29,339 bases of DNA from a virus (lineage: Duplodnaviria; Heunggongvirae; Uroviricota; Caudoviricetes). The DNA lies in the IMG/VR virus record IMGVR_UViG_2558860274_000008, positions 1-29,339 of that record; one strand, given 5' to 3'. This document shows positions 11,071-28,236 of this stretch, in pieces (position 1 is the stretch's first letter; every line of letters starts with the position of its first letter). The notes beneath the pieces are model-generated. The model did not search any database. It was not told where the DNA came from and saw only the letters and a program-made list of their open reading frames with translations. The position numbers and the translations under genes were made by a program.

Positions 11071-11329
11071 TAGCGTAACCTTATGAAGGGGGAAGATGGC
11101 CCTATTTTGCCTTAAAGTTCCGCTTGTTACGAGCTTATACAGCGATTAATTATTATCTGGTTTTAGTGTGTTCGTGTAGCTCAGCAAGTGCAATGACTCA
11201 TGGAGTAAATGCTTTGTAGCGGGATTGTAGATGTCAGGTCATTGCCGTCAATGGAGCCAGTGTCATTGGCATAATTGCTGCACAGCCGATGCCACGCGCA
11301 CATTCGCTAGTTCACTGTGGTTCATCGTG

Positions 11330-11552
11330 TGTACTACACCAGTACGCAGTCCGGGAAGTAACGGCATGGCAGAATCGTTTGTAAAGACGTTCAAGCGGGA
11401 TTATGTGTACGTAGATGATCTGCTGGATGCAGTCTAAATGATGGAAACAATGGCAGAATAGATAGAGGATTATAATAATCTGCATCCACACAAGGGGTTG
11501 AACATGAAATCGCCACGCGAATATCGTGATGCCATATTAGCAGTTAATTAGC
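11330..11552 (+). pseudogene. IS3-family-like DDE transposase/integrase-core C-terminal remnant with in-frame stops
   Basis: Translation ...SNGMAESFVKTFKRDYVY..DLLDAV*..MAE*IEDYNNLHPHKGLNMKSPREY resembles the C-terminal end of an rve-type transposase, interrupted by two stop codons. No N-terminal part is present. Confidence 0.6.
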
Positions 11553-12665
11553 CGTGTCCGTTTTAGCAGGGACAACTCCAGTATTCAAAAAAGCTTTCTT
11601 AGTGCATATGCATGAGGTGAATAGATGTACAGGCTATGACAAACCATAGTTGTAATTTTTAATGTTTAAAATTCTCCGTTACAGTAGGACATTCCTTGTA
11701 CATTAAATTCCATCTAAGGTTGAATTTTTAATTTAATAAGGTCGCAATCTAAAATGATGTGTATGGGGTTATTTGTAAGATGATTTTTTATTTTTGATAG
11801 TGGTGATTAAGGGAGCGGGTAATGTTTGTCTATTCAAAAATATAGAGATTCAAGGTTGGTAGCAGTTTGGCTTCTTTTATAACCGAAGGGCAGAAAAGCA
11901 AGGGGAACTCGAAGAAGCAAGCGCAGCGGCTTCGCAGAGTTAGCCCTTGCTTCTCTTATAATTGGCATTATTCATTCAAGAACAATAGGATCTTCGCTTG
12001 TACAAGCGAAGCTATAATAAAAACAATCAATTAATAATTTTAAAAGTATTAAACAAGAACCTATTGACATTCATAAAATACAAGTTATTTATAATGTATG
12101 CCATAAATAAAAAGTTTTATGTCATATGTATCCTGCACTATGTGCAGTTAATGTACCACTTGTCCCATAGATGGGAATATTGGAAAGGTTACTTTGTTTT
12201 GAAGTAGCCTTTCGTCCTTCAATATTAACGATTACTTATTGCTATTACCAAGTCCAGTCGAATCGAAGAACATCTTTTATCTGAAACGACTCCTAATACC
12301 CGGTTAAAACCACAATATCTCTCGCATACGTAGACCAAAGAAAAATTATGATATTAACTATGTGATTTTTTTAGTGTTAAGTTGAATAATTAAATACTGG
12401 AGAGTTTTCTGTGCACTACCAATTGCTGGTTCATCTGTTCTGCCGCTGATGTTTCTGACGAATCTCCCGGTGACACAGAACTGTCCCTCTCTACCAGCCT
12501 TTATTCGACTCAATGTCCGGCTGCTGATACGCAGTTATCCCTTCGTATCAATGACTGACACTTAAACGTAATGCTTTGGTTGCTGGCGTATCTGACAGCT
12601 TCTTCGGCGTGAAGGTCGTTGTGTAAGTATACTTCTTGGTTTATTTAGGCTATATAAAACCATGA

Positions 12666-13562
12666 CTATGACTTGCTGTTTTCAGTAAGAGTCTTATCAT
12701 CCAAAGAATTTATTCTAGAAATTCTTTTTAACTCATTAAGATAATCAACCTCGTTTTCTAAGAACCAATGAAGAACTTTAGAATTGCCAAGTAATTTATT
12801 AATATATGACTGGATTATAACGAATTTCAACATATCTGAACCATACTCGGTTTGAAGCTTTTTCGTTTCTTCCGAAGTTGTTGCCATTTCTTGTTCCAGA
12901 CGAAGTATGGTTTTTTTTATGTCCTTTTTATAGGGAGTGTTTTTCCCTTTATTTACTATCATCGATGCCGGTGTTGCATCCAAGATGCTCATTGCAAATT
13001 TTTTACTATAATTATCAAAATTAATCATTGTACCGACTGCTTCAATTTGGCGAATTGGCTTCATTTTCCTCAAAACGTCAAATGTAGCCTTAGGTATAGG
13101 TTTATCAGAAAGTTTCGCAATTACACTTGGATCTATGCCGTTCATCACATTCGCTTTATCTTTTATGGCATCAACAGATATGCCCAAAGCAGCACTAAGT
13201 TTTTCAATTGATACTTTTGCCAGAGACTTAATTATCATTCTATGTTCTTCAACTACATTTATATGATTCACTTGTTTGTTAGGAGTGAAAGCATCATCTA
13301 TGCTCGAAAGTATACATGGAGCTTTTTCTATACCTAAGTCTTTTAAAGCCTCAACCCTTAAATGGCCATCAAGTATCTTAGTGACATCTTTATCTTTGTC
13401 ATAGAATACTATTATTGGTTCAATAATACCTAAGCTTTCGATAGAGGTAACTATTTGATGATATTTATGGCTTCGCTTTACGTTTTCTAATAATTCCTTA
13501 GATGGAATTAACTTATTAGTTTCCAGGTAAATAAAATTATCGCCAAAACGTATCTGAATCAT
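12666..13562 (-). CDS. ParB-like protein (ParB/Spo0J N-terminal-domain fold plus HTH), paralog 2
   Basis: 298-aa ORF with segment IIEPIIVFYDKDKDVTKILDGHLRVEALKDLGIEKAPCIL and HTH-like SIEKLSAALGISVDAI. Start overlaps the upstream paralog's stop (ATGA). AT-rich. Confidence 0.65.
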   Translation of the reverse strand: MIQIRFGDNFIYLETNKLIPSKELLENVKRSHKYHQIVTSIESLGIIEPIIVFYDKDKDVTKILDGHLRVEALKDLGIEKAPCILSSIDDAFTPNKQVNHINVVEEHRMIIKSLAKVSIEKLSAALGISVDAIKDKANVMNGIDPSVIAKLSDKPIPKATFDVLRKMKPIRQIEAVGTMINFDNYSKKFAMSILDATPASMIVNKGKNTPYKKDIKKTILRLEQEMATTSEETKKLQTEYGSDMLKFVIIQSYINKLLGNSKVLHWFLENEVDYLNELKRISRINSLDDKTLTENSKS

Positions 13563-14455
13563 TTTAATACCTCTTTGTTTACTGGGGTTAATATCTGAGA
13601 TGGTAGTTCTGAAAGATTCTCTTGTTCAAGTATATGTTGAAAGCTTTTATTCATCATTATGATGTTAAAAATCTCATTTACTATTAGTAGGTTGGTTTTT
13701 ATGAATTTTGAGTTGTTATAAACAGATTTATGTTCAGCGATACTATTTTCATAAAGCTCAATCAACTCCTCTGCAGTCATCCTTTTTGATGGTTTGTGAT
13801 AATAAAATCCGGCTGCTTTTGCACCTTTATTCCCAACTGTTCTTTGATTTAGAATGTGTTTTATCTTTATAATGTCCCGACTTTTTATTAATTTTTTATC
13901 ATATGCTTCGGTAAGAATATCTTGTGCTTCCTCAGTTTCACATCTTGCAAATTGCACTGCGAGATACAGAGGCAAATTACCCCGTTCGACTGCTGAGAGA
14001 AGTTTATGCTCTCCCTTATCAAGTAGCATATTAATACTGCTCACCCAGTTCGATGAATATCCAGTAATCTCACTTATTTCGGAGTCTGAAAGTCCTCTGA
14101 TTTTCATGTCTTTAATCACCTGTAATAACTCATTAGAACGTGGTCTTCTCCTTGCAATGTTTTCAACTAAACTCATAACGTAAGCATCTTCTTCTGATAC
14201 ATCTCTTATAATTGCTGGAATAATAGTTTCACCTAATGCAACGAGAGCCTCTATTCTCCCTTGACCACAAATTAAAGCATATTTGAAATCACCTTCATCA
14301 ATAGCTCTTACGCTTATTGGCTTGCTTAATCCTCTTTTTTTTATGCTTTCCTTTATTTCTTCATGCACTACCTTATTTCTTGTTCGTGGGTTAAGAAATT
14401 TTATTTTTGCAATCTCAATTTGAATTATTGGGAATTCATTTTTTTCAGGCAGCAT
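13559..14455 (-). CDS. ParB-like protein (ParB/Spo0J N-terminal-domain fold plus HTH), paralog 1
   Basis: 298-aa ORF with segment KPISVRAIDEGDFKYALICGQGRIEALVALGETIIPAIIRDVSEEDAYVMSLVENIARRRP that parallels the Spo0J/ParB boxes (…Y.LIAGERR.RA…G…VPAIVRD…ENLQR). The arginine-rich motif is degenerate (GQGRIEA). Overlaps the recombinase stop by 11 nt. Confidence 0.7.
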   Translation of the reverse strand: MLPEKNEFPIIQIEIAKIKFLNPRTRNKVVHEEIKESIKKRGLSKPISVRAIDEGDFKYALICGQGRIEALVALGETIIPAIIRDVSEEDAYVMSLVENIARRRPRSNELLQVIKDMKIRGLSDSEISEITGYSSNWVSSINMLLDKGEHKLLSAVERGNLPLYLAVQFARCETEEAQDILTEAYDKKLIKSRDIIKIKHILNQRTVGNKGAKAAGFYYHKPSKRMTAEELIELYENSIAEHKSVYNNSKFIKTNLLIVNEIFNIIMMNKSFQHILEQENLSELPSQILTPVNKEVLK

Positions 14456-16001
14456 ATAGTTCCCTCACTTTCATGCGAGTAATAATTTGTAGAAGTTTAT
14501 CAAGATTATCAAATCTATAGAGATCTAATCGAATGTTGTTTGTTTCCGTCATGCACATTTTATTATATTCGTTTTCAATCTTTGGTATGATATAAAAATC
14601 AAGAGGTGAAATATTTTGTGAATTCATTCGTATAACAATTGTTATGTCTGCTTTCTGTGAGTTATCAAACCGGACTTTCCATCTAAGTTTACCTGATTTC
14701 ATATGTATGCATTTAGTAACAAGGACGGAAATTAAAAACTCATCATTGATGTAAAGCATTGGGGCATATTTATACTCGTCTATATGACAGTTACTTTTTA
14801 AAATTTCACCCTTAAAATCCTCAATTATCTCTGAGTAAAATGATCTTAGTGCTTCATTTATTTTGAGATAGCTGTAATCATGTTCTGGCTTATAACCAAT
14901 CAAAGTATATGCTCTTAAAAGACCACCAAATCGGGTTCTATAAACAGAAGATGAAGGGCCTGTATCATCTTCATCAATGATAAAGCCTGATAGTTTTCCA
15001 TTAGATTCTAATTTTTGTTTTAGTTTTTCTAATAGATCTTCATTAGTCAAATGAATGGATCGGAGCTGAATTATTTCTTGAGCTTTATTGTATTTTTTCT
15101 TTGAAATAATAGGTTTATATGCCTTGTCACATCTAACCCATTCATGTTTGGGGTTTTTTACAAGCCTACTTTTTAATTTAGATGAGGTTTTGTTATATAT
15201 GTTGTTTCCAATATATTTTTCATTTGTCAAAATTTGATGTATTTTTGCACGAGTCCATAATGTTCCATTTTCTGCAGGTATGTTCTGTTCATTTAATCTC
15301 TCAGCAATAATGAATTCTGGGACGTTATTATCTATAAAGAGATCATATATTCTATTTACAATTTTTATTTCATTTTTTGGTCCCGGAATTAATATTACCC
15401 TATCTGTTTGAATACTCTTTCTTTTGCGGAAACTCAATATTTCTTTAGCTATGCCATTTTCGTCTACTAAAAGACGTCTCAGCCCATAACCAGCCATACC
15501 GCCTTGATGATAACCAAGCTTTATTAAATTTACTTGCCCTATAAATACCTTTTCAGATAGATTCCTGCTGTGATATGCAGCACTAGATCTTTTTATATTC
15601 AGTATAACAGAGGACTCTAAAGGGAAATCTTTAGTGGGTATAGGTTCGGAACAATATATAAGATCTACACCATTTCTCTCAAATAGAAAGGAATAATATG
15701 CCGCTTCATCACTATTTTGAAAACGACCAAAACGGCTCACATCATAAAATAATACAGCCTGTATATCTATTTTCTTTTGTTCTACATCGCTAAGTAACTG
15801 CTGCAAAGAATGCCTGCCTACGATACTGACTCCGCTCTTACCTGCATCATCGTAGGTATAAGCGATTTCCATATTGTTCTTTTCAGCATAATCTTTGATA
15901 TATTCGGACTGATTATGTAAAGAATATTGCTGATGGTCGGTAGACATCCTCAAGTACTGCGCGACCCTAACTCTATGATTTTTGTCATTTTCGCTAGCCA
16001 T
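14445..16001 (-). CDS. Large serine recombinase (resolvase/invertase-type catalytic domain plus recombinase domain)
   Basis: 518-aa ORF whose N-terminus (VAQYLRMSTDHQ...YDDAGKSG...LQQLL...DVSRFGR) matches the serine-recombinase catalytic-domain pattern, followed by a long C-terminal extension typical of large serine recombinases. AT-rich, with an SD before the ATG. Confidence 0.85.
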   Translation of the reverse strand: MASENDKNHRVRVAQYLRMSTDHQQYSLHNQSEYIKDYAEKNNMEIAYTYDDAGKSGVSIVGRHSLQQLLSDVEQKKIDIQAVLFYDVSRFGRFQNSDEAAYYSFLFERNGVDLIYCSEPIPTKDFPLESSVILNIKRSSAAYHSRNLSEKVFIGQVNLIKLGYHQGGMAGYGLRRLLVDENGIAKEILSFRKRKSIQTDRVILIPGPKNEIKIVNRIYDLFIDNNVPEFIIAERLNEQNIPAENGTLWTRAKIHQILTNEKYIGNNIYNKTSSKLKSRLVKNPKHEWVRCDKAYKPIISKKKYNKAQEIIQLRSIHLTNEDLLEKLKQKLESNGKLSGFIIDEDDTGPSSSVYRTRFGGLLRAYTLIGYKPEHDYSYLKINEALRSFYSEIIEDFKGEILKSNCHIDEYKYAPMLYINDEFLISVLVTKCIHMKSGKLRWKVRFDNSQKADITIVIRMNSQNISPLDFYIIPKIENEYNKMCMTETNNIRLDLYRFDNLDKLLQIITRMKVRELYAA

Positions 16002-16170
16002 GCACGAAACCTCATGGATGATTCAATACAATGTAGTGGATAAAATTGATCAAATTTCAACCGAATTCAACTGTTTTATCATTGATTAGAGCGAATTTGG
16101 TAGATCTTCGAGGTGTATGATAATCGAGAAGAGATGTGAATTATTTAGCTGATATGACCGACAGCTTTCG

Positions 16171-16220
16171 TTATGTGGACTCAATGTCCCCATTTGTAAA
16201 TGGCTATGCTTAGTCCACAT
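16171..16220. promoter_or_regulatory. Nested dyad-symmetric site upstream of the serine recombinase operon
   Basis: Perfect 10-bp inverted repeat TATGTGGACT (16171-16180) / AGTCCACATA (16211-16220) enclosing an inner near-palindrome CCATTT-GT-AAATGG. No T-tract, so unlikely to be a terminator. Confidence 0.5.
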
Positions 16221-16283
16221 AGGTTAATGGTGTGATTATTAATTCTTTAACTAAATCAAGATAGTTAATCCATCATGGGAGAG

Positions 16284-17513
16284 TTATGCGGCAATAACTT
16301 TGCATTTTTGAGACGAAACATAGTCACTCCACCATTGCATGAGAACCACCCGTTCAGTGAGATACTCTGCACGATTGTAGGCTGCAATTATTTCATCTTT
16401 CTTCGAGTGGGCAAGGGCGGCTTCTAAGACATCAGTCCTAAACTTGCCAGACTCCTCAGCAGCCGTTCTAGCAATGGATCGCATACCGTGAGCTACAAGC
16501 TCACCTCCGAAACCCATACGGATTATGGCCGCATTAGCTGTTTGTTCATGCATGTGATTGAGTGGAGCTTTGATACTGGGGAACACCCACTCTCTATGCC
16601 CGCTGATGACTTTCATTAAATCCAAAACTCGCAAAGCTTCTTTGCTCAGTGGAACTTTGTGAGGCTTCTTCATTTTCATAAACTCCGCCGGGATGTTCCA
16701 CATGCCAGTTTCAATATCAATATCTGACCATCTTGTGCGAACAGCTTCACCTGGGCGAACCCATGTGAGAAGTTGCCACTCAATCAGTAGCCTTGTTTCC
16801 AAACGGATAGAAGCATTGTTTAGAGCAACCAAGAAGCGAGGGAGTTCGGAAGGGGGTAATGCTGGCATATTCTGTTTTTTTGGCTTGCTGAACCGTTGCC
16901 CCAGGTTGTCTGCCGGGTTGAATTCTATGAGTTCTTCTGTTGCTGCATAGCGGAAAATTTCATTCAGGCGGGATATGATGCGGCGAAGTGTTTCAAGGAC
17001 ACCTCGTTTTTCTATGGGTTCTAAATGCTGTTTAAGCATTTTAGGGCGAATCTCCTTAATTGGGGTATCACCCAATGTGGAAAAGATATTTCTCTCTAGG
17101 CTTCGCCAGATGTCGTTAGCATGATCTTGGGAGATGCCTGACGTTTTGACTTTCTCATCAAGCCACTTCTTGGCTACTGCTTGAAATGTATGTTCCGTGG
17201 CATCTTTCAGTGCATTGGCTTTTTGGTTGTTATGAACTTGGGGGTCTATACCATTTGTAAGCAACGACAAGTATTCATCACGTAAAGCTCGTGCCTTCGC
17301 AAGTGTAAGGTGAGGATAGGTTCCTAAGCTCACCTTAGTTCGCTTTTTGGTCACAGGCACTGCATATCTGAAATACCAATTTTTCTTCCCTCCCTTCGCC
17401 AGGGGAGCGATTCGCAACAGCAAACCATCGCCGTCAAAAAGGTTCACCTCTTTTTCGGCAGGTTTGGTGCTTTTGATTTCAGTGTCAGTGAGCTTCTTAG
17501 CGATTTTGGCCAT
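16284..17513 (-). CDS. int: P4-type tyrosine integrase
   Basis: Start placed at the internal Met (MAKIAKKLTDTEIK...), which has a GAGGG SD 8 nt upstream. C-terminal region has the tyrosine-recombinase R...H..R..Y pattern (AHGMRSIARTAA...AYNRAEYL). Sits next to a degenerate ssrA 3'-end repeat. Confidence 0.88.
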   Translation of the reverse strand: MAKIAKKLTDTEIKSTKPAEKEVNLFDGDGLLLRIAPLAKGGKKNWYFRYAVPVTKKRTKVSLGTYPHLTLAKARALRDEYLSLLTNGIDPQVHNNQKANALKDATEHTFQAVAKKWLDEKVKTSGISQDHANDIWRSLERNIFSTLGDTPIKEIRPKMLKQHLEPIEKRGVLETLRRIISRLNEIFRYAATEELIEFNPADNLGQRFSKPKKQNMPALPPSELPRFLVALNNASIRLETRLLIEWQLLTWVRPGEAVRTRWSDIDIETGMWNIPAEFMKMKKPHKVPLSKEALRVLDLMKVISGHREWVFPSIKAPLNHMHEQTANAAIIRMGFGGELVAHGMRSIARTAAEESGKFRTDVLEAALAHSKKDEIIAAYNRAEYLTERVVLMQWWSDYVSSQKCKVIAA

Positions 17514-17611
17514 GTTTGGGACCCTCGATTTTAGGACCCATCTTCGTGGGTCCCATTCAGGGTGCCATAACTCGTAGTTCTCAGCAATTCTCACTAGACT
17601 ACAATAGACGT

Positions 17612-17644
17612 AAAAAAGCCCGCAGAGCTTGTGCTGTGCGGGCT
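17612..17644 (-). terminator. Rho-independent terminator-like hairpin (minus strand) between the degenerate att repeat and int
   Basis: GCCCGCACAGCACAAGCTCTGCGGGC followed by a T-run on the minus strand. Nearly identical to the hairpin at 22175-22207. Confidence 0.6.
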
Positions 17645-17679
17645 TAGTAGACTTTACTGAACTTCAGTACATCAATATT

Positions 17680-17701
17680 TGGTGGGCTGGCGGAGTTTGA
17701 A
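17680..17701. repeat. Degenerate copy of the ssrA 3' end (oldest att remnant)
   Basis: TGGTGGGCTGGCGGAGTTTGAA versus TGGTGGAGCTGGCGGGAGTTGAACC at 22243 and 28280. Same position relative to the terminator hairpin and integrase as the copy at 22243. Confidence 0.6.
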
Positions 17702-17845
17702 TAAATATCGTATTGCTTTGATTTTTAATGGTTTTGTTTAATTCAGTTTTTGTGCGTATACCTAATCGTATACCAATGGCTGTAAGTTAATGTGAAATGA
17801 AAGCGCATTTTTACTTGGATTGATGCTATATCGTACAGGAAAAAA

Positions 17846-18140
17846 TTTTTTTTTCGAAAGAACTGTTCACACTGTTCATCTTTCTGTTTTCTCCTTTTAT
17901 TTCAGTTGGATAGGTGGTGAATAATGGGTGAAGGGTGAACATTCGATTCTTCACCTCCGGCATTCTGCCGGTGTGACTTGTGCAGGGGATTAATCCTCCG
18001 CACTGAAATCACACAGGGAGAAAAAAGTTTTTTTTGATTTGATTGTTCACACTGTTCACCTTTCATTTTTCTCTTTTAATTTCAGTGTGATAACGGGTGA
18101 ATACACGGTGAAGGGTGAACAGTGGATTGTTCACCTTCGG
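17846..18140. repeat. P4 crr-like region: two direct repeats of about 115 bp, each carrying TGTTCAC(C)/GGTGAA(CA) iterons
   Basis: Unit 1 about 17846-17960 and unit 2 about 18026-18140 are near-identical. Each contains ..TGTTCACACTGTTCA.. and GGTGAA..GGTGAAGGGTGAACA..TTCACC. Confidence 0.65.
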
Positions 18141-18153
18141 GGAATTCAGGGAT

Positions 18154-18178
18154 AAAAAAAGACCGGCAGATGCCGGTC
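18154..18178 (-). terminator. Rho-independent terminator (minus strand) downstream of the alpha fragment
   Basis: Perfect hairpin GACCGGCA-GA-TGCCGGTC followed by a run of seven T on the minus strand. Confidence 0.6.
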
Positions 18179-18194
18179 AGATGAGTCATGAGGG

Positions 18195-18422
18195 TCAGGT
18201 TGTTGCAGGGTCGTCACATTTTGGCAGCCAGTCGCCGTAGCTTTCCTCTTTCAGCGTCAGGTTGGTCTGTATCCCCTGTTTGGTATGGCGCTTCTCGTAA
18301 TTCAGTCCGTATTCCTTCAGCATCACCGGCAGCCCCAGCCCGAACATTTTCAGACTGAGTACATTCCGGTAGCCGTTTGCCTCCATGTAGGCCAGATAAA
18401 GGCCTTGCACTGTCAAGAACAT
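18195..18422 (-). pseudogene. C-terminal fragment of a P4 alpha-type primase
   Basis: 75 codons (..GLYLAYMEANGYRNVLSLKMFGLGLPVMLKEYGLNYEKRHTKQG..) resembling the C-terminal tail of P4-family primases. No upstream catalytic domains. Confidence 0.5.
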
Positions 18423-18436
18423 CGCGGCGTCTGTCT

Positions 18437-18628
18437 CAGGAAGTCACCGAGCGTTTTTATGTGTGCACGGATCCGGGCTGTGGTCTGGTGTTTAAAACGC
18501 TTCAGACCATCAACCGTTTCATTGTCCGCCCGGTCACGCCGGACGAACTGGCAGAACGCCTGCATGAAAAACAGGAACTGCCGCCAGTACGCTTAAAAAC
18601 ACAATCATATTCGCTGCGTCTGGAATGA
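18437..18628 (+). pseudogene. C-terminal fragment of a Delta/Ogr-family zinc-finger activator
   Basis: ..ERFYVCTDPGCGLVFKTLQTINRFIVRPV.. parallels the second half of the intact Ogr in this window (..RYCQCQNINCGSTFVTHETVVRFIVTP..). The first Cys pair is missing. Confidence 0.55.
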
Positions 18629-18701
18629 GGGCTGCCGGTTAACACCGGCCGTCGCCGCACACCGTATTTTTATTCTTCAGCATGATGAGAAAGAGATAAC
18701 G

Positions 18702-19274
18702 ATGGAAAGCACAGCCTTACAGCAGGCCTTTGACACCTGTCAGAATAACAAAGCAGCATGGCTGCAACGCAAAAATGAGCTGGCAGCGGCCGAACAGGAA
18801 TACCTGCGGCTTCTGTCAGGAGAAGGCAGAAACGTCAGTCGCCTGGACGAATTACGCAATATTATCGAAGTCAGAAAATGGCAGGTGAATCAGGCCGCCG
18901 GTCGTTATATTCGTTCGCATGAAGCCGTTCAGCACATCAGCATCCGCGACCGGCTGAATGATTTTATGCAGCAGCACGGCACAGCACTGGCGGCGGCACT
19001 GGCACCGGAGCTGATGGGCTACAGTGAGCTGACGGCCATTGCCCGAAACTGTGCCATACAGCGTGCCACAGATGCCCTGCGTGAAGCCCTTCTGTCTTGG
19101 CTTGCGAAGGGTGAAAAAATTAATTATTCCGTACAGGATAGCGACATTTTAACGGCCATCGGATTCAGGCCTGACGCGGCTTCGGTGGATGACAGCCGTG
19201 AAAAATTCACTCCTGCGCAGAACATGATTTTTTCGCGTAAAAGTGCGCAACTGGCATCACGTCAGTCTGTGTAA
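18702..19274 (+). CDS. psu: P4 Psu-like protein (polarity suppression / capsid decoration)
   Basis: 190-aa ORF that is recognisably Psu-like from memory. Sits between the delta remnant and cos, as in P4. Confidence 0.8.
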   Translation: MESTALQQAFDTCQNNKAAWLQRKNELAAAEQEYLRLLSGEGRNVSRLDELRNIIEVRKWQVNQAAGRYIRSHEAVQHISIRDRLNDFMQQHGTALAAALAPELMGYSELTAIARNCAIQRATDALREALLSWLAKGEKINYSVQDSDILTAIGFRPDAASVDDSREKFTPAQNMIFSRKSAQLASRQSV

Positions 19275-19310
19275 AATTCCCCGAAAATCCGCCCGTTTTT
19301 ACTGAAAAAA

Positions 19311-19350
19311 GCCATGCATCGATAAGGTGCATGGCTTTGCATGCGTTTTC
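19311..19350 (+). terminator. Terminator-like hairpin after psu
   Basis: GCCATGCA-tcgataagg-TGCATGGC followed by TTTGCATGCGTTTTC. Confidence 0.5.
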
Positions 19351-19438
19351 ACGTCTCATTTTCTGTATACCAGGCCACGCCCGGCACGGCCTGAGCGTGT
19401 CAGTGCAACTGCATTAAAACCGCTCCGCAAAGCGGGCG

Positions 19439-19457
19439 GGCGAGGCGGGGAAAGCAC
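19439..19457. other. P2/P4-type cos site (19-nt cohesive-end sequence)
   Basis: GGCGAGGCGGGGAAAGCAC, matching the cohesive-end sequence I recall for P2/P4, in the expected position after psu. Confidence 0.75.
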
Positions 19458-19710
19458 TGCGCGCCGGGCTAAAGAATGGAAAATCTTTTCCTTGTACTGA
19501 GCATGCTTGTTGAAAACAGGTTAATAGGCCTCTCGGAGTATTGAATTGCGAGTTTTACTACAACTCTTGATGCTAATATATTGATTGTCTTAAAATAATT
19601 ACTGGCAATGAGGCTCGAAGTCAATGTTGCTATTTTTATTATGGATACGTTGAATACACAGAGTGGTCGCCTTCTTGTTATGCGATTAACTTTCAATTTA
19701 GGGGGGGAGA

Positions 19711-20592
19711 ATGGATTGGAATGTTTTTTTTAGTACTATTAGCCAGACGTCAGGTGCAATTGTCGGAATATTTTCAGCATTTCTAATAACTAAGATAATA
19801 TCTAATCAGTCTGATTTTTCAAGAATGAAGGAACGAGTGTCCTTTCTTATTAATAAGTCTAAAGCCTTGAGTTTAGAAGCGAACTCCAGATATTTTGATT
19901 GGTATAATAGACGAACGCGAGAGCGAGAATTGGATAAGTTAAAGGGTATGTTTGATGAAAGTGATGAGTTTTTATCCGCAGAGGAATATTATGAGAGGCT
20001 TGATTTTTCGCCGTTTGAATTAAGAGATGATGTCTTGGTGTACATACGCAATGCTATTGAGGCGCGTAAAGAGGAAGAAAAAAGACAGATAGGTTATTAC
20101 GGGATTATGCCCACTTTAAGAATGCCTGTAAGTATCTTGAGTAATGATGTCCAGGAAGAGTTCGAACTCATTGATGCTCTCAAAGTTAGGATTCTAGCAA
20201 ATATAAATGACATTATTTATGTTCATGACGAGATTGTAAAAGAAAAGTATGGTAAAAATCTGATAACAATCTCGATTGTTGCATCATCCCTTTTATTTAT
20301 ATTGGGCGTTATTTATCCGCTTAGTTTTATCCCTAAAGCTATTGGTGAAGATATTAACATTACTTTTATGGCATTTTTTGATGTTTTGTTTTCTATTAAA
20401 GGTTTTTTTCTTTCTTTGCTTGCCATTGTTTTTTTGAGTTTGATGTTAGCATTTCTATATATTAACATAACACTGCGATTTGAGAGTGAGGTAATATCAG
20501 AACTTGAATTCTATATGAATATAAGTGCCTATTCTGAATACTTTGGAAACGAGTATAAAAATAGTGTCCATTTAAAAGAGATGTCCGTGTAA
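19711..20592 (+). CDS. Hypothetical membrane protein (N-terminal TM helix, about 150-aa soluble region, two C-terminal TM segments); cargo in the P4-like cos-to-int slot
   Basis: 293-aa AT-rich ORF with a G-rich SD directly upstream. Hydrophobic segments at about residues 5-28, 187-208 and 217-250. No recognisable catalytic motif. Confidence 0.7.
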   Translation: MDWNVFFSTISQTSGAIVGIFSAFLITKIISNQSDFSRMKERVSFLINKSKALSLEANSRYFDWYNRRTRERELDKLKGMFDESDEFLSAEEYYERLDFSPFELRDDVLVYIRNAIEARKEEEKRQIGYYGIMPTLRMPVSILSNDVQEEFELIDALKVRILANINDIIYVHDEIVKEKYGKNLITISIVASSLLFILGVIYPLSFIPKAIGEDINITFMAFFDVLFSIKGFFLSLLAIVFLSLMLAFLYINITLRFESEVISELEFYMNISAYSEYFGNEYKNSVHLKEMSV

Positions 20593-20645
20593 TGAATTTA
20601 TTGAGGCCATTTCTTGGCCTCAATAAATGCTAAAGAGAGACGATT

Positions 20646-20819
20646 TTAAGGTATTTTTATTCCAACCTTAAACTCTTCGTTGTCTCTGAATTTTTCAAGT
20701 GATTCTCGTAAATAGATAGTTTGAATATCTGTGGGGATGAATTTTATCGCCATTCCGTCAAGGCATGTTTTTATATATTTACTAACGTCTTCAATATATT
20801 GATGGTGGTTATTTGACAT
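20646..20819 (-). CDS. Small hypothetical protein (57 aa) immediately downstream of int
   Basis: Not in the ORF track (below length cutoff). ATG preceded by AAGGAG at a 6-nt spacing. Convergent with the 293-aa gene. Confidence 0.4.
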   Translation of the reverse strand: MSNNHHQYIEDVSKYIKTCLDGMAIKFIPTDIQTIYLRESLEKFRDNEEFKVGIKIP

Positions 20820-20846
20820 TTAAAACTCCTTTGCCGTGCAATCTTT

Positions 20847-22058
20847 TTAAATCGCTTGCATGAGGAGGTGGCGATTGTGCACAAATTCCCCCCACCAATT
20901 CATCAAGTCTATACGTTGTTCTAGGTAAGTTGAACGATTGTATGCTCTGCGAACTTCATTTTTATCACTGTGAGCAAGTGCCGCTTCAATTACGTCCGGA
21001 TTAAAACCAGCTTCATTTAGCGCGGTACTTGCTATAGAACGTAATCCATGAGCAACAAGCTTCCCACCATAACCAATGCGCTTAAGTGCAGCATTAGCAG
21101 TCTGGCTATTCATTGGTTGTTTAGGATCATTCCTACTTGGAAAAATATGTTCACGATGAGCACTGATTGGCTTCATCACTTCCAGAATCTCTAATGCCTG
21201 AGAAGACAGTGGGACAATATGCTTGCGTTTCGCCTTCATCCGTTCGGCTGGAATCGTCCAGAACTTTGAATCGAGATCGATCTCTGCCCACCGAGCACCG
21301 GAGGCCTCAGAAGGGCGCACAATGGTCAGGAGTTGCCATTCAATTAGACAGCGAGTCGGAACAGACAGATTAGACATAACCAAAGAACGCATCAGCTTTG
21401 GTAATTCTTCTGGCCGGAGCGTCGGCATGTTTTGCTTTTTAGGTTTCTCAAAAGCCATCCCAATACCTGATGCTGGATTGGCATCAATCAGACCAGTGTT
21501 TACGGCATAAATCATTATCTCGTTAATGCGCTGCACCAGACGACGTACCGTCTCTAGCGCCCCACGTGCTTTGATTGGCTCAAGGGCTTCAACAAGTGTT
21601 CGGGCTTTGATTTGCTGAACTGGGATCTCACCGATGGCAGGGAATACATCTTTTTCTAGTGAACGCCAAATGTCTTTCGCGTAATCAGGGGTAACGCTTT
21701 TGCTTTTAAGCTGGAACCAGTTAGCGGCGACTGTTGAAAAAATACTGTCCAGTGCGATTTGCTGCTGTTCCTCTGCAATTTCAGCTTGAATTTGCGGGTC
21801 AATTCCGTTGGCTAACAAGGAAAGGTAATCCGCTCTTAACCGTCGGGCGTCAGCAAGTGAAAGGGCGGGGAAGGCTCCTAGCCCCATCATTGTTCGCTGC
21901 TTTGTTGCTGGACGTTGATAACGGAAACGCCATAACTTCTTACCGTTCGTTTTAACGAGCAGAAAAAGACCATCGCCATCATGCAACGTTAGATCCTTTT
22001 CTAACGCTTTAGCGCGCAGAACTTCTGTGTTGGTCAGGGGGCGTGTCGTTCTTGCCAC
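20847..22058 (-). CDS. int: P4-type tyrosine integrase
   Basis: 403-aa ORF with a GTG start preceded by GAAGGAG. N-terminus MARTTRPLTNTEV...DGDGLFLLV and a tyrosine-recombinase C-terminal pattern. Adjacent to the ssrA 3'-end repeat. Confidence 0.9.
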   Translation of the reverse strand: MARTTRPLTNTEVLRAKALEKDLTLHDGDGLFLLVKTNGKKLWRFRYQRPATKQRTMMGLGAFPALSLADARRLRADYLSLLANGIDPQIQAEIAEEQQQIALDSIFSTVAANWFQLKSKSVTPDYAKDIWRSLEKDVFPAIGEIPVQQIKARTLVEALEPIKARGALETVRRLVQRINEIMIYAVNTGLIDANPASGIGMAFEKPKKQNMPTLRPEELPKLMRSLVMSNLSVPTRCLIEWQLLTIVRPSEASGARWAEIDLDSKFWTIPAERMKAKRKHIVPLSSQALEILEVMKPISAHREHIFPSRNDPKQPMNSQTANAALKRIGYGGKLVAHGLRSIASTALNEAGFNPDVIEAALAHSDKNEVRRAYNRSTYLEQRIDLMNWWGEFVHNRHLLMQAI

Positions 22059-22080
22059 TTTGGCCGCTCCTTCATGAATT

Positions 22081-22128
22081 GGTATACGCGTTTAGGTATA
22101 CATCCTACCGTATACCTAAACGTATACC
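22081..22128. promoter_or_regulatory. Inverted repeat in the int upstream region
   Basis: GGTATACGCGTTTAGGTATAC (22081-22101) and GTATACCTAAACGTATACC (22110-22128) are near-perfect reverse complements. Confidence 0.45.
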
Positions 22129-22174
22129 AATAATCACTGGATTTAGCTGGATATCCTCGGACAACGGTAGACAC

Positions 22175-22207
22175 AAAAAAGCCCGCAGAGCTTGTGCCAT
22201 GCGGGCT
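22175..22207 (-). terminator. Rho-independent terminator (minus strand) just downstream of the ssrA 3'-end repeat
   Basis: AGCCCGCATGGCACAAGCTCTGCGGGCT followed by TTTTTTG on the minus strand. Confidence 0.65.
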
Positions 22208-22242
22208 TTCAGGATTTCTCCGGACGTATCCGGAAGAGCAAG

Positions 22243-22287
22243 TGGTGGAGCTGGCGGGAGTTGAACCCGCGTCCGAAATTCCTACAT
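22243..22287. repeat. Direct repeat of the ssrA 3' end (att core) between the P2-like and P4-like remnants
   Basis: 45-bp exact match to 28280-28324 (TGGTGGAGCTGGCGGGAGTTGAACCCGCGTCCGAAATTCCTACAT). Confidence 0.9.
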
Positions 22288-22411
22288 ACCATTTTTACTA
22301 TAATAAAAACAGTTATTTATTTTTTAAATCAGTATGTTAGTGTTATTTGGTGTTTCTCCGTTTTATGTGTTTTTAATGTTCTGCCGCCAAAGTGTCGCCA
22401 CTATTGCTGGC

Positions 22412-23599
22412 CTATCTAATAGGTGAATAATCAAATAAGCGATCCATACAAACTTCCAGTTTATAAAAGTCAGTTAATGGGTAAAGTCTGATTATGTCAC
22501 TATCAAAATCAGTAATGCCAGATAGCCTTTCTTTTCGAGCAAGAAATCTGATAGCTTTCCCCTGCTCAGATGTTTTAGGGATTGCATTCTGATACTCTAA
22601 TGTTTTTAAAACCTGCCATGAAACAGGTGGAGTAAAATCAAATAATGATGACAACCTTGGGCAAAAATCTTTTTGAGTCGTTTGTCTATATGTGGCTTTG
22701 GGGGGTAATACAACATTTATTGAAAGTTTTGAACCTAGACTTTTTTTCATTTTCGTTGATGAATAGGCTATGCCAGATATTGGAGATTGACCCCGTGTGC
22801 TTATCCACTGCATGAGTAAATTAGGTATTATATATTCTTGCGTAAAACTTGAGTTTTCATGTGTTTTTATATAGCTACATGAGAAAATTAAGGGCCAGAG
22901 AACCAAATACGAAGCTTTGATATAATTATTTGTTCTTAACTCTTCGCTGCTCCATTCTTTAGTATTGATTGAGGTTTTCAGTTGTGGAACAAAGTTAAGG
23001 ATTTTAGATTTAGTATCTTGTGATATGAATGAGGATATATATAGTTTATCAAAATCTGGTTTGTCCATTTCTTGCCAGCATACATATAGAGATGAACCTA
23101 GATATAAACAGGGGAGTCCCGCTACTGAGTAACGTTGAGCACTGACAAGGTGTCGGCAGGAAAATGGTATATGGAAAATATCTTCCCTGTTAAGTAATGG
23201 CTTGTCTGATTTGCGTACTCTATAGAGTGGTTGATCATAATTACATATTTCCTTAAGGGGGATTGTGATTCTTTGAATATGCTTATTAATAAGATTGTCT
23301 GAAAAAGTGTCATCGAAAATATCATATGCCTCTTTGATGTCACCCGCTAAAAACTCTTGAAGGCTCTCGGTTATTCCTAGTTGTATTTTTAATACTCGCT
23401 TTATTAGCAGATCAATATTAAGCCTGGTTTTGTTTTTAATTTTAAATTCATTTAAAAAATTAAGGTATTCATTGCAGCGAGAGTTAAAATCAGAAACGAT
23501 GTCACCTTTAGGTTTAAAAGGTGGCATTAAATCCTCATTACTATACAACTCATTCAGCATCATATTTAACTGAGTTTCAACATCTCTATCCTGTTGCAT
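22412..23599 (-). CDS. Hypothetical protein with a RES-domain-like region and an N-terminal extension of about 120 aa
   Basis: 395-aa AT-rich ORF starting 7 nt after the int stop. Segment PLYRVRKS...FHIPFSCRHLVSAQRYSVAGLPCLYLGSSLYVCWQE matches the RES-domain pattern. No adjacent small antitoxin-like ORF. Confidence 0.6.
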   Translation of the reverse strand: MQQDRDVETQLNMMLNELYSNEDLMPPFKPKGDIVSDFNSRCNEYLNFLNEFKIKNKTRLNIDLLIKRVLKIQLGITESLQEFLAGDIKEAYDIFDDTFSDNLINKHIQRITIPLKEICNYDQPLYRVRKSDKPLLNREDIFHIPFSCRHLVSAQRYSVAGLPCLYLGSSLYVCWQEMDKPDFDKLYISSFISQDTKSKILNFVPQLKTSINTKEWSSEELRTNNYIKASYLVLWPLIFSCSYIKTHENSSFTQEYIIPNLLMQWISTRGQSPISGIAYSSTKMKKSLGSKLSINVVLPPKATYRQTTQKDFCPRLSSLFDFTPPVSWQVLKTLEYQNAIPKTSEQGKAIRFLARKERLSGITDFDSDIIRLYPLTDFYKLEVCMDRLFDYSPIR

Positions 23600-23606
23600 T
23601 CTTTTC

Positions 23607-24623
23607 TCACTTTAATAAATTTAGTGGATTTTTAGTCACCGCGTCTTCTAAATGATCTGGAGAAAAATGAGCGTAGATCATCGTCATTTTTATATCCGCA
23701 TGTCCTAGAATATCGCGCAGCACCAGTATGTTTCCGCCATTCATCATAAAGTGGCTGGCAAATGTATGGCGCAGGACGTGGGTGCATTGGCCTTCCGGTA
23801 GTTCGATACCGGCCCGTTTTACCGCCCGTTCAAAGGCTTTTCTGCATGGTGTGAATAACTTCCCTCGTTTTTTGGGGAGTTCGTTGTACAGTTCCTGAGA
23901 AATAGGTACGGTTCGGTTTTTCTTGCCCTTTGTCTTGGTATAAGTTATACGGTATTTTGATAACTGATGACCCTGCAGGTTTTCGGCTTCACTCCAGCGC
24001 GCGCCTGTGGCTAAGCATATTTTTGCAATCAAAAGTAGGCTGGGATTTTGAGAATCAGCACAGGCATTCAGCAAGCGTTTTATTTCTTCCTGTGTCAGAA
24101 ATGCCAGTTCGCCCTCTGCAATTTTAAATGTTGGTAGACCGGCGAGTGGGTTGGGGGCGGACCAGTGGCCTAATTTTTTTAAAGTTCCAAAAACTGATGA
24201 TAGATTGCGTTGTTCAAGGTTTACTGTTCGAGGCTTAACCGGCGACATAAACACACCATCAATGTTTTTAACGTCACCTTTTAGTCGCGCTTCCCGATAC
24301 TTAGTGAAATCACCTGCTGTCAATTCAGAGGCTATGGGATCACCAAGTCCACCACAAATGATTTTTAATTTCGCCATTAAACGCTTGGGGTCAGCGAGAG
24401 TTCGACCATACAGGGAATACCACAGCTCAATTAATTCTGACAGGTGCCGCCGATCATCCTTTTCACCTAACCACGGTTTTTTGTTCACCTCTTCCATAGT
24501 GAAGCTTTCAAACGCAATGGCTTCGCCTTTCGTAGCAAATTGCTTACGTACGCGTTTGCCATTGCGTCCATTGGGATAGCACTCACACAACCATTTACCG
24601 TTTGGCTGTTTTCTGACAGTCAT
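23607..24623 (-). CDS. int: P2-type tyrosine integrase
   Basis: 338-aa ORF (MTVRKQPNGKWLCECYPNG...ICLATGARWSEAE...HVLRHTFASHFMMNGGNILVLRDILGH...MTMIYAHF), directly downstream of the repressor gene as in P2/186. Confidence 0.92.
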   Translation of the reverse strand: MTVRKQPNGKWLCECYPNGRNGKRVRKQFATKGEAIAFESFTMEEVNKKPWLGEKDDRRHLSELIELWYSLYGRTLADPKRLMAKLKIICGGLGDPIASELTAGDFTKYREARLKGDVKNIDGVFMSPVKPRTVNLEQRNLSSVFGTLKKLGHWSAPNPLAGLPTFKIAEGELAFLTQEEIKRLLNACADSQNPSLLLIAKICLATGARWSEAENLQGHQLSKYRITYTKTKGKKNRTVPISQELYNELPKKRGKLFTPCRKAFERAVKRAGIELPEGQCTHVLRHTFASHFMMNGGNILVLRDILGHADIKMTMIYAHFSPDHLEDAVTKNPLNLLK

Positions 24624-24625
24624 GT

Positions 24626-25258
24626 TTAGATACTCTTTATTACTTTGACTGCGCGCCCAATAACTTCCACATCATCAGCAGAGCACTCGAAAGACGCTTC
24701 ATCTTGATTTACTACAATCTTATTGCCGGGAATCCGCATGATTTTTGCAATAATAATCATTCCATCAATATTGATAAGCCAGAATCCATTGCTGACTTGT
24801 TTAACTGATTTATCGATGAGATAACAATCAGTAGGGGTTTCTAAGAACATCGATTCTTCATAATGTGCAGGTAATATGCTGTGGTCTAGAAAAATCTTTT
24901 CATCAATACGGAGTTTTCCATTCTCCAAGGTTCCTTTAGGAATAGATGGAGTTACGAGTTTGGATAACGGTCTAATCGCTAGTTTGTTCTCATTATGAGA
25001 ACTTTTTTCAGGCTCACATTCTTCTTTCATGCTTCCCTGTCCTGTTGCTAACCAAAGCAACGAAACACCAGTTTCTAGTGCGCACTGAATTATCCAGTCA
25101 GCAGGAAAGCTATCACGTAACACTCTGTTTGCCATAGTGCTTTTTGAGACATTCAGATGCTCGCTTAATGCCTGCTTAGTTGTGAATCCATAAGCCTCAA
25201 GCAGCCTCTCAATAGCTGCCTTACCTCCCGTATCGGAACCCATTCTGATGTTTAACAT
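24626..25258 (-). CDS. cI: Phage CI-type repressor (N-terminal HTH)
   Basis: 210-aa ORF with HTH region TKQALSEHLNVSKSTMANRVLRDSFP. Divergent from the cox-like gene, with a strong SD. Confidence 0.8.
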   Translation of the reverse strand: MLNIRMGSDTGGKAAIERLLEAYGFTTKQALSEHLNVSKSTMANRVLRDSFPADWIIQCALETGVSLLWLATGQGSMKEECEPEKSSHNENKLAIRPLSKLVTPSIPKGTLENGKLRIDEKIFLDHSILPAHYEESMFLETPTDCYLIDKSVKQVSNGFWLINIDGMIIIAKIMRIPGNKIVVNQDEASFECSADDVEVIGRAVKVIKSI

Positions 25259-25271
25259 TGGTAATCTCCAT

Positions 25272-25300
25272 TTGACAATCTTGAATCAAGATCGTAATGT
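25272..25300 (+). promoter_or_regulatory. Sigma70-like promoter for the rightward (cox-like) transcript with an embedded operator-like palindrome
   Basis: TTGACA (25272-25277), 17-bp spacer, TAATGT (25295-25300). The spacer contains the perfect palindrome ATCTTGA-A-TCAAGAT (25278-25292). Direct repeat CTAAAACG x2 lies at 25335-25354. Confidence 0.5.
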
Positions 25301-25379
25301 CTTCATGTCTCTTGATGTGAGATTTTAAGAGACGAGCTAAAACGAACTAAAACGCACACAAAGTAAGAGATACTGCACT

Positions 25380-25781
25380 ATGAGCAACGACATTTCAATT
25401 CGTGTACCAAAAGTGATGGCGACCCCTGCAGAGTTCGCGGAATGGGAAGGCCGATCTCGTGGTTCGGTATATCAAATGATTCACAATGGTAAACTTGCTA
25501 AGTTTTTGGAAAAAAAGGAAAAATCGAAAGACAGAGTATGTATACGTTACCTTGAGTACAAAAAGGAACAAGTCAGGAAAAACATGGGCCACCCGATCTA
25601 TTACCACGGTGAGCACCGCCACCGGATTGAGGCACCGACGCAGATCATCATTCAGACGCAGCCAGGACAAAGTGCGCAGGATATTGCGCGGGAGGTGGCA
25701 CGCCAGCTTGATGAACGTGAACGCAGGCTGAAGGCAAAAGCCAGGAGTAACTACAGCGATCAGGGGGGATACGACGCATGA
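25380..25781 (+). CDS. Cox/Apl-like HTH N-terminus continuous with the 3' end of the tail gene preceding U (probable deletion fusion)
   Basis: 133-aa ORF. N-terminus (..ATPAEFAEWEGRSRGSVYQMIHNGKL..) is excisionase/Cox-like. Its stop overlaps the U start (ATGA), as expected for the gene upstream of U in P2 (T). The junction is not precisely located. Confidence 0.5.
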   Translation: MSNDISIRVPKVMATPAEFAEWEGRSRGSVYQMIHNGKLAKFLEKKEKSKDRVCIRYLEYKKEQVRKNMGHPIYYHGEHRHRIEAPTQIIIQTQPGQSAQDIAREVARQLDERERRLKAKARSNYSDQGGYDA

Positions 25782-26263
25782 TGATGGTGCTGGGATTGTA
25801 CGTGTTTATGCTGCGCACCGTTCCGTATCAGGAACTGCAGTATCAACGCAGCTGGCGACATGCGGCAAACAGCCGGGTAAACCGTCGTCCGTCCACGCAG
25901 TTTCTGGGACCGGACAACGACATGCTGACGCTTTCTGGTGTTCTTATGCCGGAGATAACGGGCGGCAGGCTGTCGTTGCTGGCTCTGGAGCAGATGGCAG
26001 AACAGGGAAAAGCATGGCCCCTGATTGAAGGCAGCGGCACGATTTACGGCATGTATGTGATTGAGGGACTGAATCTGACTAAAACGGAGTTTTTCCGCGA
26101 CGGTATGCCGCGCCGGATTGAGTTCACCCTGTCGCTCAAACGGGTGGATGAATCCCTGTCCGATATGTTCGGTGATCTCAGTACGCAACTGAATAATCTG
26201 CAGGACACGGCAACATCTGCCTTAAGTGATATCAGTAAAACGGTGGGAGGGCTGCTGTCGTGA
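25778..26263 (+). CDS. U: P2 gpU-like tail protein
   Basis: 161-aa ORF (MMMVLGLYVFMLRTVPYQELQYQRSWRH...LGPDNDMLTLSGVL...) recognisable as P2 U from memory. Confidence 0.9.
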   Translation: MMMVLGLYVFMLRTVPYQELQYQRSWRHAANSRVNRRPSTQFLGPDNDMLTLSGVLMPEITGGRLSLLALEQMAEQGKAWPLIEGSGTIYGMYVIEGLNLTKTEFFRDGMPRRIEFTLSLKRVDESLSDMFGDLSTQLNNLQDTATSALSDISKTVGGLLS

Positions 26264-27647: not shown

Positions 27648-27652
27648 GAAAG

Positions 27653-28221: not shown

Positions 28222-28236
28222 TTTGCCGCCACTATC

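Follow-up and report, generated by a model that had tools for sequence, protein, structure and literature searches.

Satellite P4 requires ori and crr in cis. The core gene set of P4-like satellites comprises int, psu, delta, sid, alpA, epsilon, and alpha (PMC8628076), and the slot between psu/cos and int is a documented P4 defence hotspot (PMC9122126). Defective P4-like satellites in "uncharacteristic genomic regions", with primase pseudogenes or primase loss and with conserved defence hotspot genes, were described by Moura de Sousa and co-workers (NAR 2026, PMC13586616). Defective P4-like satellites are already known as a kind, and the remnant presented here is ordinary in itself. Its main interest lies in a deletion junction common to different backbones and in breakpoints that appear to be anchored to a sequence motif.

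The DNA analyzed, referred to below as the window, was a stretch of 29,339 nt (IMG/VR record IMGVR_UViG_2558860274_000008). Positions 17683–22287 of the window very probably represent the defective prophage of a P4-like satellite, integrated at the ssrA 3′ end, with one internal deletion of ~5.74 kb. With satellite P4, the element shared the order and orientation of crr, the alpha 3′ end, the delta 3′ end, psu, and cos (94–98% nucleotide identity), as well as nine of the ten crr iterons and the 19-nt cohesive end. Unlike that of P4, which targets leuX, its integrase targets ssrA, and the gop-beta-cII cargo of P4 is replaced by two unrelated ORFs. An intact ssrA sibling was found in E. coli STEC17-190 (NZ_CP075649, 1306.7–1317.1 kb), with the same site, integrase, cargo, cos, and distal boundary at the degenerate att site. 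The order of the sibling from ssrA is int, the 57-aa and 293-aa cargo genes, psu, delta, sid, alpA, an icd-like gene, epsilon, orf151, orf106, alpha, and crr; unlike the remnant, it still has the whole core of 5.74 kb (alpha, orf106, orf151, epsilon, icd/cI, alpA, sid, and full-length delta).

Element Boundaries and the ssrA Locus

The remnant spans 4.6 kb between two copies of the ssrA 3′ end, one exact (45 bp) and one degenerate; ssrA itself lies at 28280–28642 on the minus strand. As in other islands that target tRNA or tmRNA genes, ssrA 3′-end repeats flank the element and an integrase lies beside the target-proximal repeat. An Rfam scan of the window gave no match except tmRNA. Read from the integrase side, the order is att, int, two cargo ORFs, cos, psu, the delta fragment, the alpha fragment, the alpha terminator, crr, and the degenerate att site. 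The features, in window coordinates, are as follows.

17680–17701: degenerate ssrA 3′-end repeat, which bounds the remnant distally and is the att site of the neighbouring island
17841–17960, plus strand: crr repeat 1, with five type-1 iterons, one of them with a single substitution; aligns to P4 4291–4410
18021–18140, plus strand: crr repeat 2, with five type-1 iterons; aligns to P4 4471–4590
18161–18178, minus strand: alpha terminator, with a hairpin of terminator type and a T run after it; t-alpha lies at 4604–4628 in the P4 annotation
18195–18398, minus strand: alpha 3′ fragment, codons 711–777 plus stop
18397–18398: deletion junction, a TA common to both parental sequences, placed by base-by-base reading
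18399–18628, plus strand: delta 3′ fragment, codons 91–166 plus stop, without the first Cys pair of the second Ogr-type zinc finger
18702–19274, plus strand: psu, intact, 190 aa; PF07455 full length and a match to PDB 3RX6 over residues 1–190
19400–19464, plus strand: cos region, with the 19-nt cohesive-end sequence GGCGAGGCGGGGAAAGCAC at 19439–19457
19711–20592, plus strand: cargo ORF of 293 aa in the psu-int hotspot; its product is the same as STEC17-190 WP_024225804
20646–20819, minus strand: 57-aa cargo ORF in the psu-int hotspot; identical protein in STEC17-190, where it is annotated as hypothetical
20847–22058, minus strand: integrase, intact, 403 aa, P4-family tyrosine recombinase with Arm-DNA-bind_3, Phage_int_M, and Phage_integrase domains
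22243–22287: att site adjoining the integrase, identical at 45 of 45 positions to 28280–28324 (the ssrA 3′ end); proximal boundary of the remnant

The original prediction gave this element a cargo slot and an intact integrase. Both are present, the slot at 19465–20846, but the integrase belonging to the element is the one at 20847–22058 and not the crr-adjacent one at 16284–17594. We assigned 20847–22058 and the cargo to the remnant because the gene order of STEC17-190 matches and similarity stops at both att copies. The integrase protein had no amino acid differences from that of the STEC17-190 sibling and was 33% identical to P4 Int, and over 19278–22287 (3,010 nt) the remnant and the sibling differed at a single nucleotide.

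The integrase at 16284–17594, directly left of crr, marks the start of another island on the far side of the degenerate att site, which also includes genes for a serine recombinase, two ParB/RepB-like genes, and type I restriction-modification; in E. coli E3, the same island likewise adjoins an intact P4-like element. Between ssrA and the P4-like remnant lies a P2/186-like prophage remnant with an integrase, a CI repressor, gpU, gpD, and ogr. The ssrA locus is a tandem array of three decayed elements.

Chromosomal genes in the window were compared with those of E. coli. The ssrA gene was identical at 363 of 363 positions, and all 35 changes in smpB were synonymous. The host is probably a non-coli Escherichia, because smpB was 92.75% identical to that of E. 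coli and the best identity over the smpB/ssrA stretch among complete E. coli genomes was at most 95.5%. The nearly identical satellite backbone appears to have been acquired recently by this host.

A Deletion Between alpha and delta

A BLAST comparison of the window with complete P4 (NC_001609/X51522) returned two arms only, both with an E-value of 0. The left arm (window 17841–18398, P4 4291–4839, 94.3% identity) covers crr, the alpha terminator, and the last 204 nt of alpha, and the right arm (window 18397–19438, P4 10583–11624, 97.9% identity) covers the 3′ part of delta, psu, and the right genome end. P4 4840–10584 (5,745 bp) is absent from the remnant, which distinguishes it from P4. In the P4 feature table this interval holds alpha codons 1–710, orf106, orf151, epsilon, cI, orf88/alpA, ori, sid, and delta codons 1–90; the late promoter region, with the −10 element upstream of sid annotated in X02534, is also within it. 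Neither sid nor alpA nor epsilon had any similarity elsewhere in the window. The arrangement is the product of one illegitimate-recombination deletion that joined alpha codon 711 to delta codon 90/91 through the 2-nt TA microhomology. The same endpoints were obtained against the E3 element (arms of 99.2% and 97.2%) and against the STEC17-190 element (99.3% over 17683–18398 and 99.6% over 18397–22287).

These collinear alignments to P4, E3, and STEC17-190 bear out the core of the original prediction, namely a P4-derived remnant in which one deletion joins the alpha 3′ end to the delta 3′ end. Aligning the complete P4 genome mapped the endpoints and proved the repeats and fragments to be P4-derived; the crr iterons, psu, and cos, said to be kept, were all found and match P4, and the alpha catalytic region, ori, epsilon, the immunity region, sid, and half of delta, said to be lost, all fall within P4 4840–10584. 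The position given for the junction, about 18423–18437, was wrong: the true site is 18397/18398, 25–40 nt further left, the ATG of an ORF having been taken as the boundary.

A chimera, formed by deletion across two tandem P4-like elements or by faulty assembly, could in principle give a similar picture, and the tandem and nested islands at the ssrA locus, together with two arms that differ somewhat in their identity to any single relative, would agree with it. However, both arms stand in native P4 order and relative orientation and have no shared homology able to mislead an assembler, and the same junction was recovered in four independent assemblies from other samples. The remnant and the deleted length also add up to ~10.3 kb, which is the size of the intact STEC17-190 sibling. 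We consider a chimeric or artefactual origin extremely unlikely and retain a single deletion within one P4-like element.

The sequences on either side of the junction were also compared with P4 gene by gene. Two direct repeats of about 115 bp, rich in iterons, had been predicted left of the junction; the repeats and iterons are real, and each repeat is 120 nt long. The repeats start 180 nt apart and are 79% identical to each other. Against the P4 annotation, nine of the ten type-1 iterons were identical, with TGTTCATC in place of TGTTCACC in the remaining one. Exact TGTTCACC occurred six times in the window versus 0.87 expected by chance, and four of these six copies were within crr. The minus-strand ORF of 75 codons (18195–18422) exists as predicted, but it is a primase tail only in its last 67 codons, the first eight (MFLTVQGL) coming from delta antisense. 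The remnant thus keeps 67 of the 777 codons of the alpha primase-helicase. These correspond to residues 40–100 of the 100-residue origin-binding domain (PDB 1KA8), and the fragment would lack 39% of this domain.

The predicted plus-strand Delta/Ogr-type C-terminal fragment proved to be delta codons 91–166, with a protein identical to P4 residues 91–166. It covers positions 11–47 of the 47 positions in the Ogr_Delta profile only. In the second Ogr-like domain, the deletion reaches into the last codon of the Cys-Arg-Arg-Cys and leaves only Cys-X4-Cys (CTDPGC) of the Ogr/Delta motif Cys-X2-Cys-X22-Cys-X4-Cys; the whole first domain is also deleted. The fragment is predicted to be unable to form a zinc finger. 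Further right, Psu was identical to P4 Psu at 187 of 190 residues. We consider psu most likely silent, because its only known promoter, upstream of sid, is deleted and a crude consensus scan restricted to sigma-70-type promoters found no sigma-70-like site on the plus strand of 17606–18701, between crr and psu. The cos sequence is that of P2/P4 cos-packaged elements, and its flanks match E3 and a contig from another assembly (L006, below) up to 19464.

Possible Residual Functions of the Remnant

The remnant retains int, both att sites, cos, crr, psu, and the cargo. Since only two of the seven P4-like core genes (int and psu) are kept, we regard the element as a remnant derived from a P4-like satellite rather than as a functional member. 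As to the P4 replicon, crr is conserved and ori (P4 9086–9809) is deleted. The remnant is predicted to be unable to replicate, because alpha and ori are missing and crr alone is not an origin. Judged by its gene content, it would likewise be unable to maintain immunity, to derepress or transactivate a P2 helper, or to redirect capsid size, and it would lack an AlpA/Vis-type excision factor. With replication, helper control, capsid redirection, and the excision factor all lost, the element is presumably an immobile fossil, for which the earlier label "non-mobilisable" is a reasonable one. The integrase and the two cargo ORFs are the only parts that may plausibly still be functional.

A very improbable alternative is that the remnant is a working minimal hitchhiker, which could be mobilised with capsids from a P2-like helper and with alpha, delta, sid, epsilon, and AlpA from a co-resident intact P4-like satellite. 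This would account, with the same low probability, for the presence of one deletion in different backbones and species: the junction occurs here at ssrA, in a host with smpB 92.8% identical to that of E. coli, and at thrW in E. coli itself (see below), and the remnant has cos, crr, int, and both att sites either intact or in the same form as the intact sibling. Against this stand the deleted ori, given the dependence of P4 on ori and crr in cis, and the length of 4.6 kb, which is far below the 11.6-kb content of the P4 capsid. Moreover, the segment shared between loci stops at crr and cos, and int, cargo, and att differ, which points to recombination of a central segment and not to movement of a whole element. 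An immobile remnant remains our reading.

The cargo was examined as a possible reason for the persistence of the element. The 293-aa protein occurred on 215 contigs under the record name "MULTISPECIES [Escherichia]". Searches with Pfam and PADLOC gave no match for either the 57-aa or the 293-aa protein. The 57-aa/293-aa pair is listed among P4 hotspot arrangements as "hypothetical + hypothetical" (Rousset 2022 Table S1). It is conceivable, although on balance unlikely, that the remnant is held for this cargo as a domesticated defence island, with both genes functional and the loss of the core having merely fixed them in the chromosome. The identity of the cargo and integrase proteins to those of the intact sibling, the location in the defence hotspot, the recurrence of the same gene pair there, and the nearby type I restriction-modification system and further island genes all agree with such a role. 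On the other hand, neither protein has a Pfam or PADLOC match, and a single nucleotide difference over 3 kb may mean only that there has been too little time for decay since the deletion, which makes conservation uninformative on selection. In any case, a single deletion can strip all selfish functions of a P4-like element yet spare its integrase, packaging site, and hotspot cargo, and the remnant fits the pattern recently proposed for the domestication of satellite-borne defence genes.

Distribution of the Junction in Other Genomes

The delta-alpha junction is rare. Among 5,426 complete E. coli genomes, none had a match across the junction of a 301-nt query, and the exact junction string was absent from GTDB species representatives (29-mer and 22-mer), IMG/VR (29-mer), and JGI metagenomes (22-mer). 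An exact look-up of the chimeric 75-aa ORF returned six other contigs, and that of the plus-strand chimeric ORF of 83 aa returned no match. Four of the contigs were fetched (L006–L009), and all four, from four independent assemblies, contained the identical 29-nt junction string. Three of the four share only crr-to-cos with the window (17839–19464, 97.2% identity); in these three, the segment lies within a different element at E. coli thrW, with a 394-aa integrase and reverse-transcriptase cargo.

A site-by-site table of alleles was used to compare the junction carriers with the intact sibling. The window and the junction contigs, L006 included, were identical over 18205–18516. Outside this stretch, differences between the window and the thrW contigs clustered distally, where the window has the STEC17-190 alleles. 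The left arm of the window had 5 differences in 560 nt from the ssrA sibling, and ~22 of its sites differed from the thrW junction carriers. The psu-delta arm, by comparison, had 13 differences in 881 nt from STEC17-190 and represents a different allele. The alleles of the window depart from those of other junction contigs within 200 nt either side of the junction, so descent from a single event requires short recombination tracts or later mutation. A C at 18104 was considered as a mark of common descent of the junction carriers and was rejected, as the same polymorphism occurs in intact-alpha elements (11 of 93 copies). The deletion allele must therefore either predate the ssrA element, with homologous recombination in the flanking arms as its means of spread, or have arisen repeatedly. 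The allele table would fit transfer of the deletion-bearing central segment by homologous recombination, without proving it.

Recurrent Breakpoints in alpha

The alpha endpoint of the window lies at the 8-mer CTATCTGG at codon 711 (P4 4833–4840), and a second copy of this 8-mer lies 90 nt upstream, at codon 681 (P4 4923–4930). Chimeras were sought among short alpha C-terminal ORFs, using the same protein cluster together with a homology search, and were then read as DNA. In several chimeric ORFs the alpha part begins at Tyr711, and in the DNA the alpha-derived part starts at TATCTGG. Together, the two copies of CTATCTGG were joined to at least seven different partner sequences, and the breaks read at the two codons are listed below.

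Codon 711, window: partner delta, microhomology TA
Codon 711, L097: partner orf106 codon 31, microhomology CTA
Codon 711, Klebsiella L098–L100: partner a cos-adjacent region
Codon 711, E. coli CX15: partner the middle of int, next to selC
Codon 711, L011/L101: partner a further, unnamed sequence; ORF indexed in 134 collection blocks
Codon 681, L109/L110: partner P4 11507 in the psu-cos spacer, microhomology TATC
Codon 681, L108: partner another unnamed sequence; break 3 nt further upstream

In addition, L013–L017 carried a second alpha copy, which lies downstream of a cargo gene (RT-TIR) and has lost 90 nt between one motif copy and the other. The breakpoints of other chimeric ORFs were scattered over codons 539–695, with one or two each. 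For six to eight motif hits among ~26 independent junctions over 720 nt, with a 5-nt tolerance at two sites, the binomial probability was 1e-6 to 1e-9, a rough estimate in which three junctions came from a length-biased cluster. The motif-anchored deletions were all one-sided, extending from the motif towards the alpha 5′ end and beyond, and the motif, terminator, crr, and att were kept. Across complete E. coli genomes, alpha 3′ ends without the adjacent internal part made up no more than ~5% (1,295 versus 1,234 places). The 26-mer just past the breakpoint had native upstream sequence in 78 of 78 IMG/VR matches, and IMG/VR thus holds only intact alpha genes.

The reuse of these endpoints suggests an anchored, sequence-specific deletion process. 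We tentatively propose, at somewhat less than even probability, that in P4-like satellites of Escherichia and Klebsiella the two CTATCTGG copies anchor deletions at a fixed point, from which 90 bp to >8 kb are lost on one side only. With the same reservation, alpha DNA would in each case start at TATCTGG, and the unrelated upstream partners would be delta, orf106, the psu-cos spacer, the cos region, int, and cargo. Variable upstream partners joined to an invariant 5′ end on the alpha-sense strand would be expected from an HUH-type nick with strand transfer; the same pattern would also be expected from template switching onto a preferred acceptor site or from fork arrest. If the proposal is correct, a sequence-specific nick, strand-transfer, or fork-arrest process repeatedly inactivates P4-like satellites, sparing crr and att and, depending on the reach of the deletion, the defence cargo.

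Candidate cutters were compared with the motif sites. The codon-711 site resembles the right arm and CTAC tail of the E. coli REP consensus. The E. coli TnpA-REP requires the complete bulged hairpin, cleaves at CT dinucleotides that lie outside the REP, and does not act on inverse REPs (PMC8266576); as these published requirements do not fit the site, TnpA-REP as it stands was rejected. The P2 A nickase was not supported as the cutter: only 9 of the 15 positions compared agree between the motif region and the nick site annotated for it, GCGCCTCG|GAGTCC, and the register is different. Folding of the two motif sites as single-stranded DNA showed nothing unusual (z = 0.04 and −1.33). Separately, real REP copies were seen in the chromosomal flanks.

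An anchored process raises the prospect that the junction formed independently in the ssrA and thrW elements, with both endpoints preferred by a sequence-specific nickase, strand-transfer enzyme, or replication barrier at CTATCTGG. The nearly sibling-like left arm of the window, set against the ~22 sites at which it departs from the thrW carriers, would agree with this, as would the reuse of the alpha endpoint with orf106, the cos region, int, and further sequence, the reuse of the second 8-mer copy 90 nt away, and the nearby delta-side breakpoints of other common alleles (P4 10500 and 10558/9). However, the delta endpoint (P4 10584/5) was seen with no other partner, both ends are unlikely to coincide exactly by chance on a microhomology of 2 nt, and the window and L006 are identical over the stretch around the junction. 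The psu-delta arm is also not STEC17-like, in contrast to the single difference in 3,010 nt next to it, which fits an imported segment bearing the deletion. Taken together, we consider independent formation improbable.

Should a defined enzyme or replication event cut at CTATCTGG, satellite inactivation would be a repeatable and experimentally tractable process and not random decay. The alpha stub and crr with which many Enterobacterial islands end would, in that case, share a mechanistic origin.

Comparison with Other Defective P4-like Satellites

A remnant at thrW in E. coli (L102, L103, L105, and L107) offers a comparable case. It likewise consists of int, cargo, psu, a delta 3′ fragment, and crr, with a single internal deletion at a TA microhomology. 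Its delta 3′ fragment is called as the same kind of ORF, of 55 aa. This remnant is very common, far more so than that of the window, with the 55-aa ORF indexed in 1,893 collection blocks. The deletion there covers P4 7292–10499 so that alpha and most of orf106 are kept, unlike in the window, and its cargo is a reverse transcriptase and a 246-aa protein. Another deletion allele has lost P4 7641–10557. The delta-side endpoints of the three alleles (10500, 10558/9, and 10585 in the window) lie within 85 nt of one another, and this clustering may be due to chance or to selection for a feature upstream of psu.

The text of the survey of defective satellites (PMC13586616) reports no preferred breakpoint and mentions neither microhomology nor crr. 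Compared with the satellites described there, the loss in the ssrA remnant is one clean deletion, with an alpha endpoint that is common to other remnants.

Islands flanking the P4-like remnant

Between ssrA and the 45-bp att copy that bounds the P4-like remnant lies a P2/186-like prophage remnant (22288-28279), from which the greater part of the phage is gone. Helper-type and satellite-type remnants are therefore neighbours here. A third island (3336-17594) was observed past the degenerate att site.

Genes of the P2/186-like remnant
22412-23599, 395-aa ORF with no assigned function
23607-24623, integrase
24626-25258, CI repressor
133-aa ORF
25778-26263, gpU
26260-27360, gpD
27429-27647, ogr, intact
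27674-28156, BRCT-like ORF

Genes of the third island
3336-4949, IS66 transposase
5035-8274, hsdR, type I restriction-modification
8333-9526, hsdS, type I restriction-modification
9523-11070, hsdM, type I restriction-modification
12666-14455, two ParB/RepB-like genes
14445-16001, large serine recombinase
16284-17594, integrase

Near-identical 23-nt sequences, CGTATACCTAA[T/A]CGTATACCAAT, were found at 17755-17777 and 22109-22131, in the upstream (att-side) region of each of the two integrases, those of the P4-like remnant and the third island; they are possibly arm-type integrase sites. A conserved terminator-like hairpin at 17616-17645 and about 22170-22209 could represent an island-borne terminator for ssrA.

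Probable host and transfer

Within 28280-29339, ssrA was identical to that of E. coli, smpB showed 92.75% identity with every change synonymous, and the ssrA-smpB spacer showed 81% identity. No complete E. coli genome matched this segment at >95.5% identity. The host is probably an Escherichia species other than E. coli. Despite the divergent smpB and spacer, an element of E. coli matched the satellite backbone at 99.97% identity, and the transfer of this backbone was probably recent.

Recurrence of the deletion junction

The junction joining delta codon 90 to alpha codon 711 was also present, identical, in L006 (4959-6586), L007, L008, and L009, where a different P4-like element carries it. 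This element sits at E. coli thrW and encodes a 394-aa integrase, with a reverse transcriptase and a 246-aa protein as cargo. The crr-to-cos segment, at 97.2% identity, was the only part that the window and these carriers had in common.

Alpha-side breakpoint
18392-18398, CCAGATA on the + strand, CTATCTGG in the alpha sense, at alpha codon 711

A second copy of the 8-mer CTATCTGG occurs at alpha codon 681. At least seven different partner sequences were joined at the codon-711 breakpoint or the codon-681 copy in other Escherichia and Klebsiella remnants (L011, L013, L018, L097, L098, L101, L108, and L109, besides the window), and the deletions lay to the same side in every case.

P4-like remnants with other single deletions were very common (L102-L107, at thrW, selC, and further loci of E. 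coli). The segments lost were P4 7292-10499, with a TA at the breakpoint, and P4 7641-10557, with TTAC there; on the delta side these deletions ended at most 85 nt from that of the window, and 1,893 blocks in the collection's index contained the 55-aa delta ORF that they leave.

At selC, L013-L017 (about 3399-6385) carried an intact alpha and one crr repeat followed by an RT-TIR gene and then by the alpha 3' end once more, in a more divergent copy, with a crr repeat. Since both sides of the RT-TIR gene thus bear the alpha 3' end and crr, the primase-att hotspot cargo lies between direct repeats of ~380 bp.
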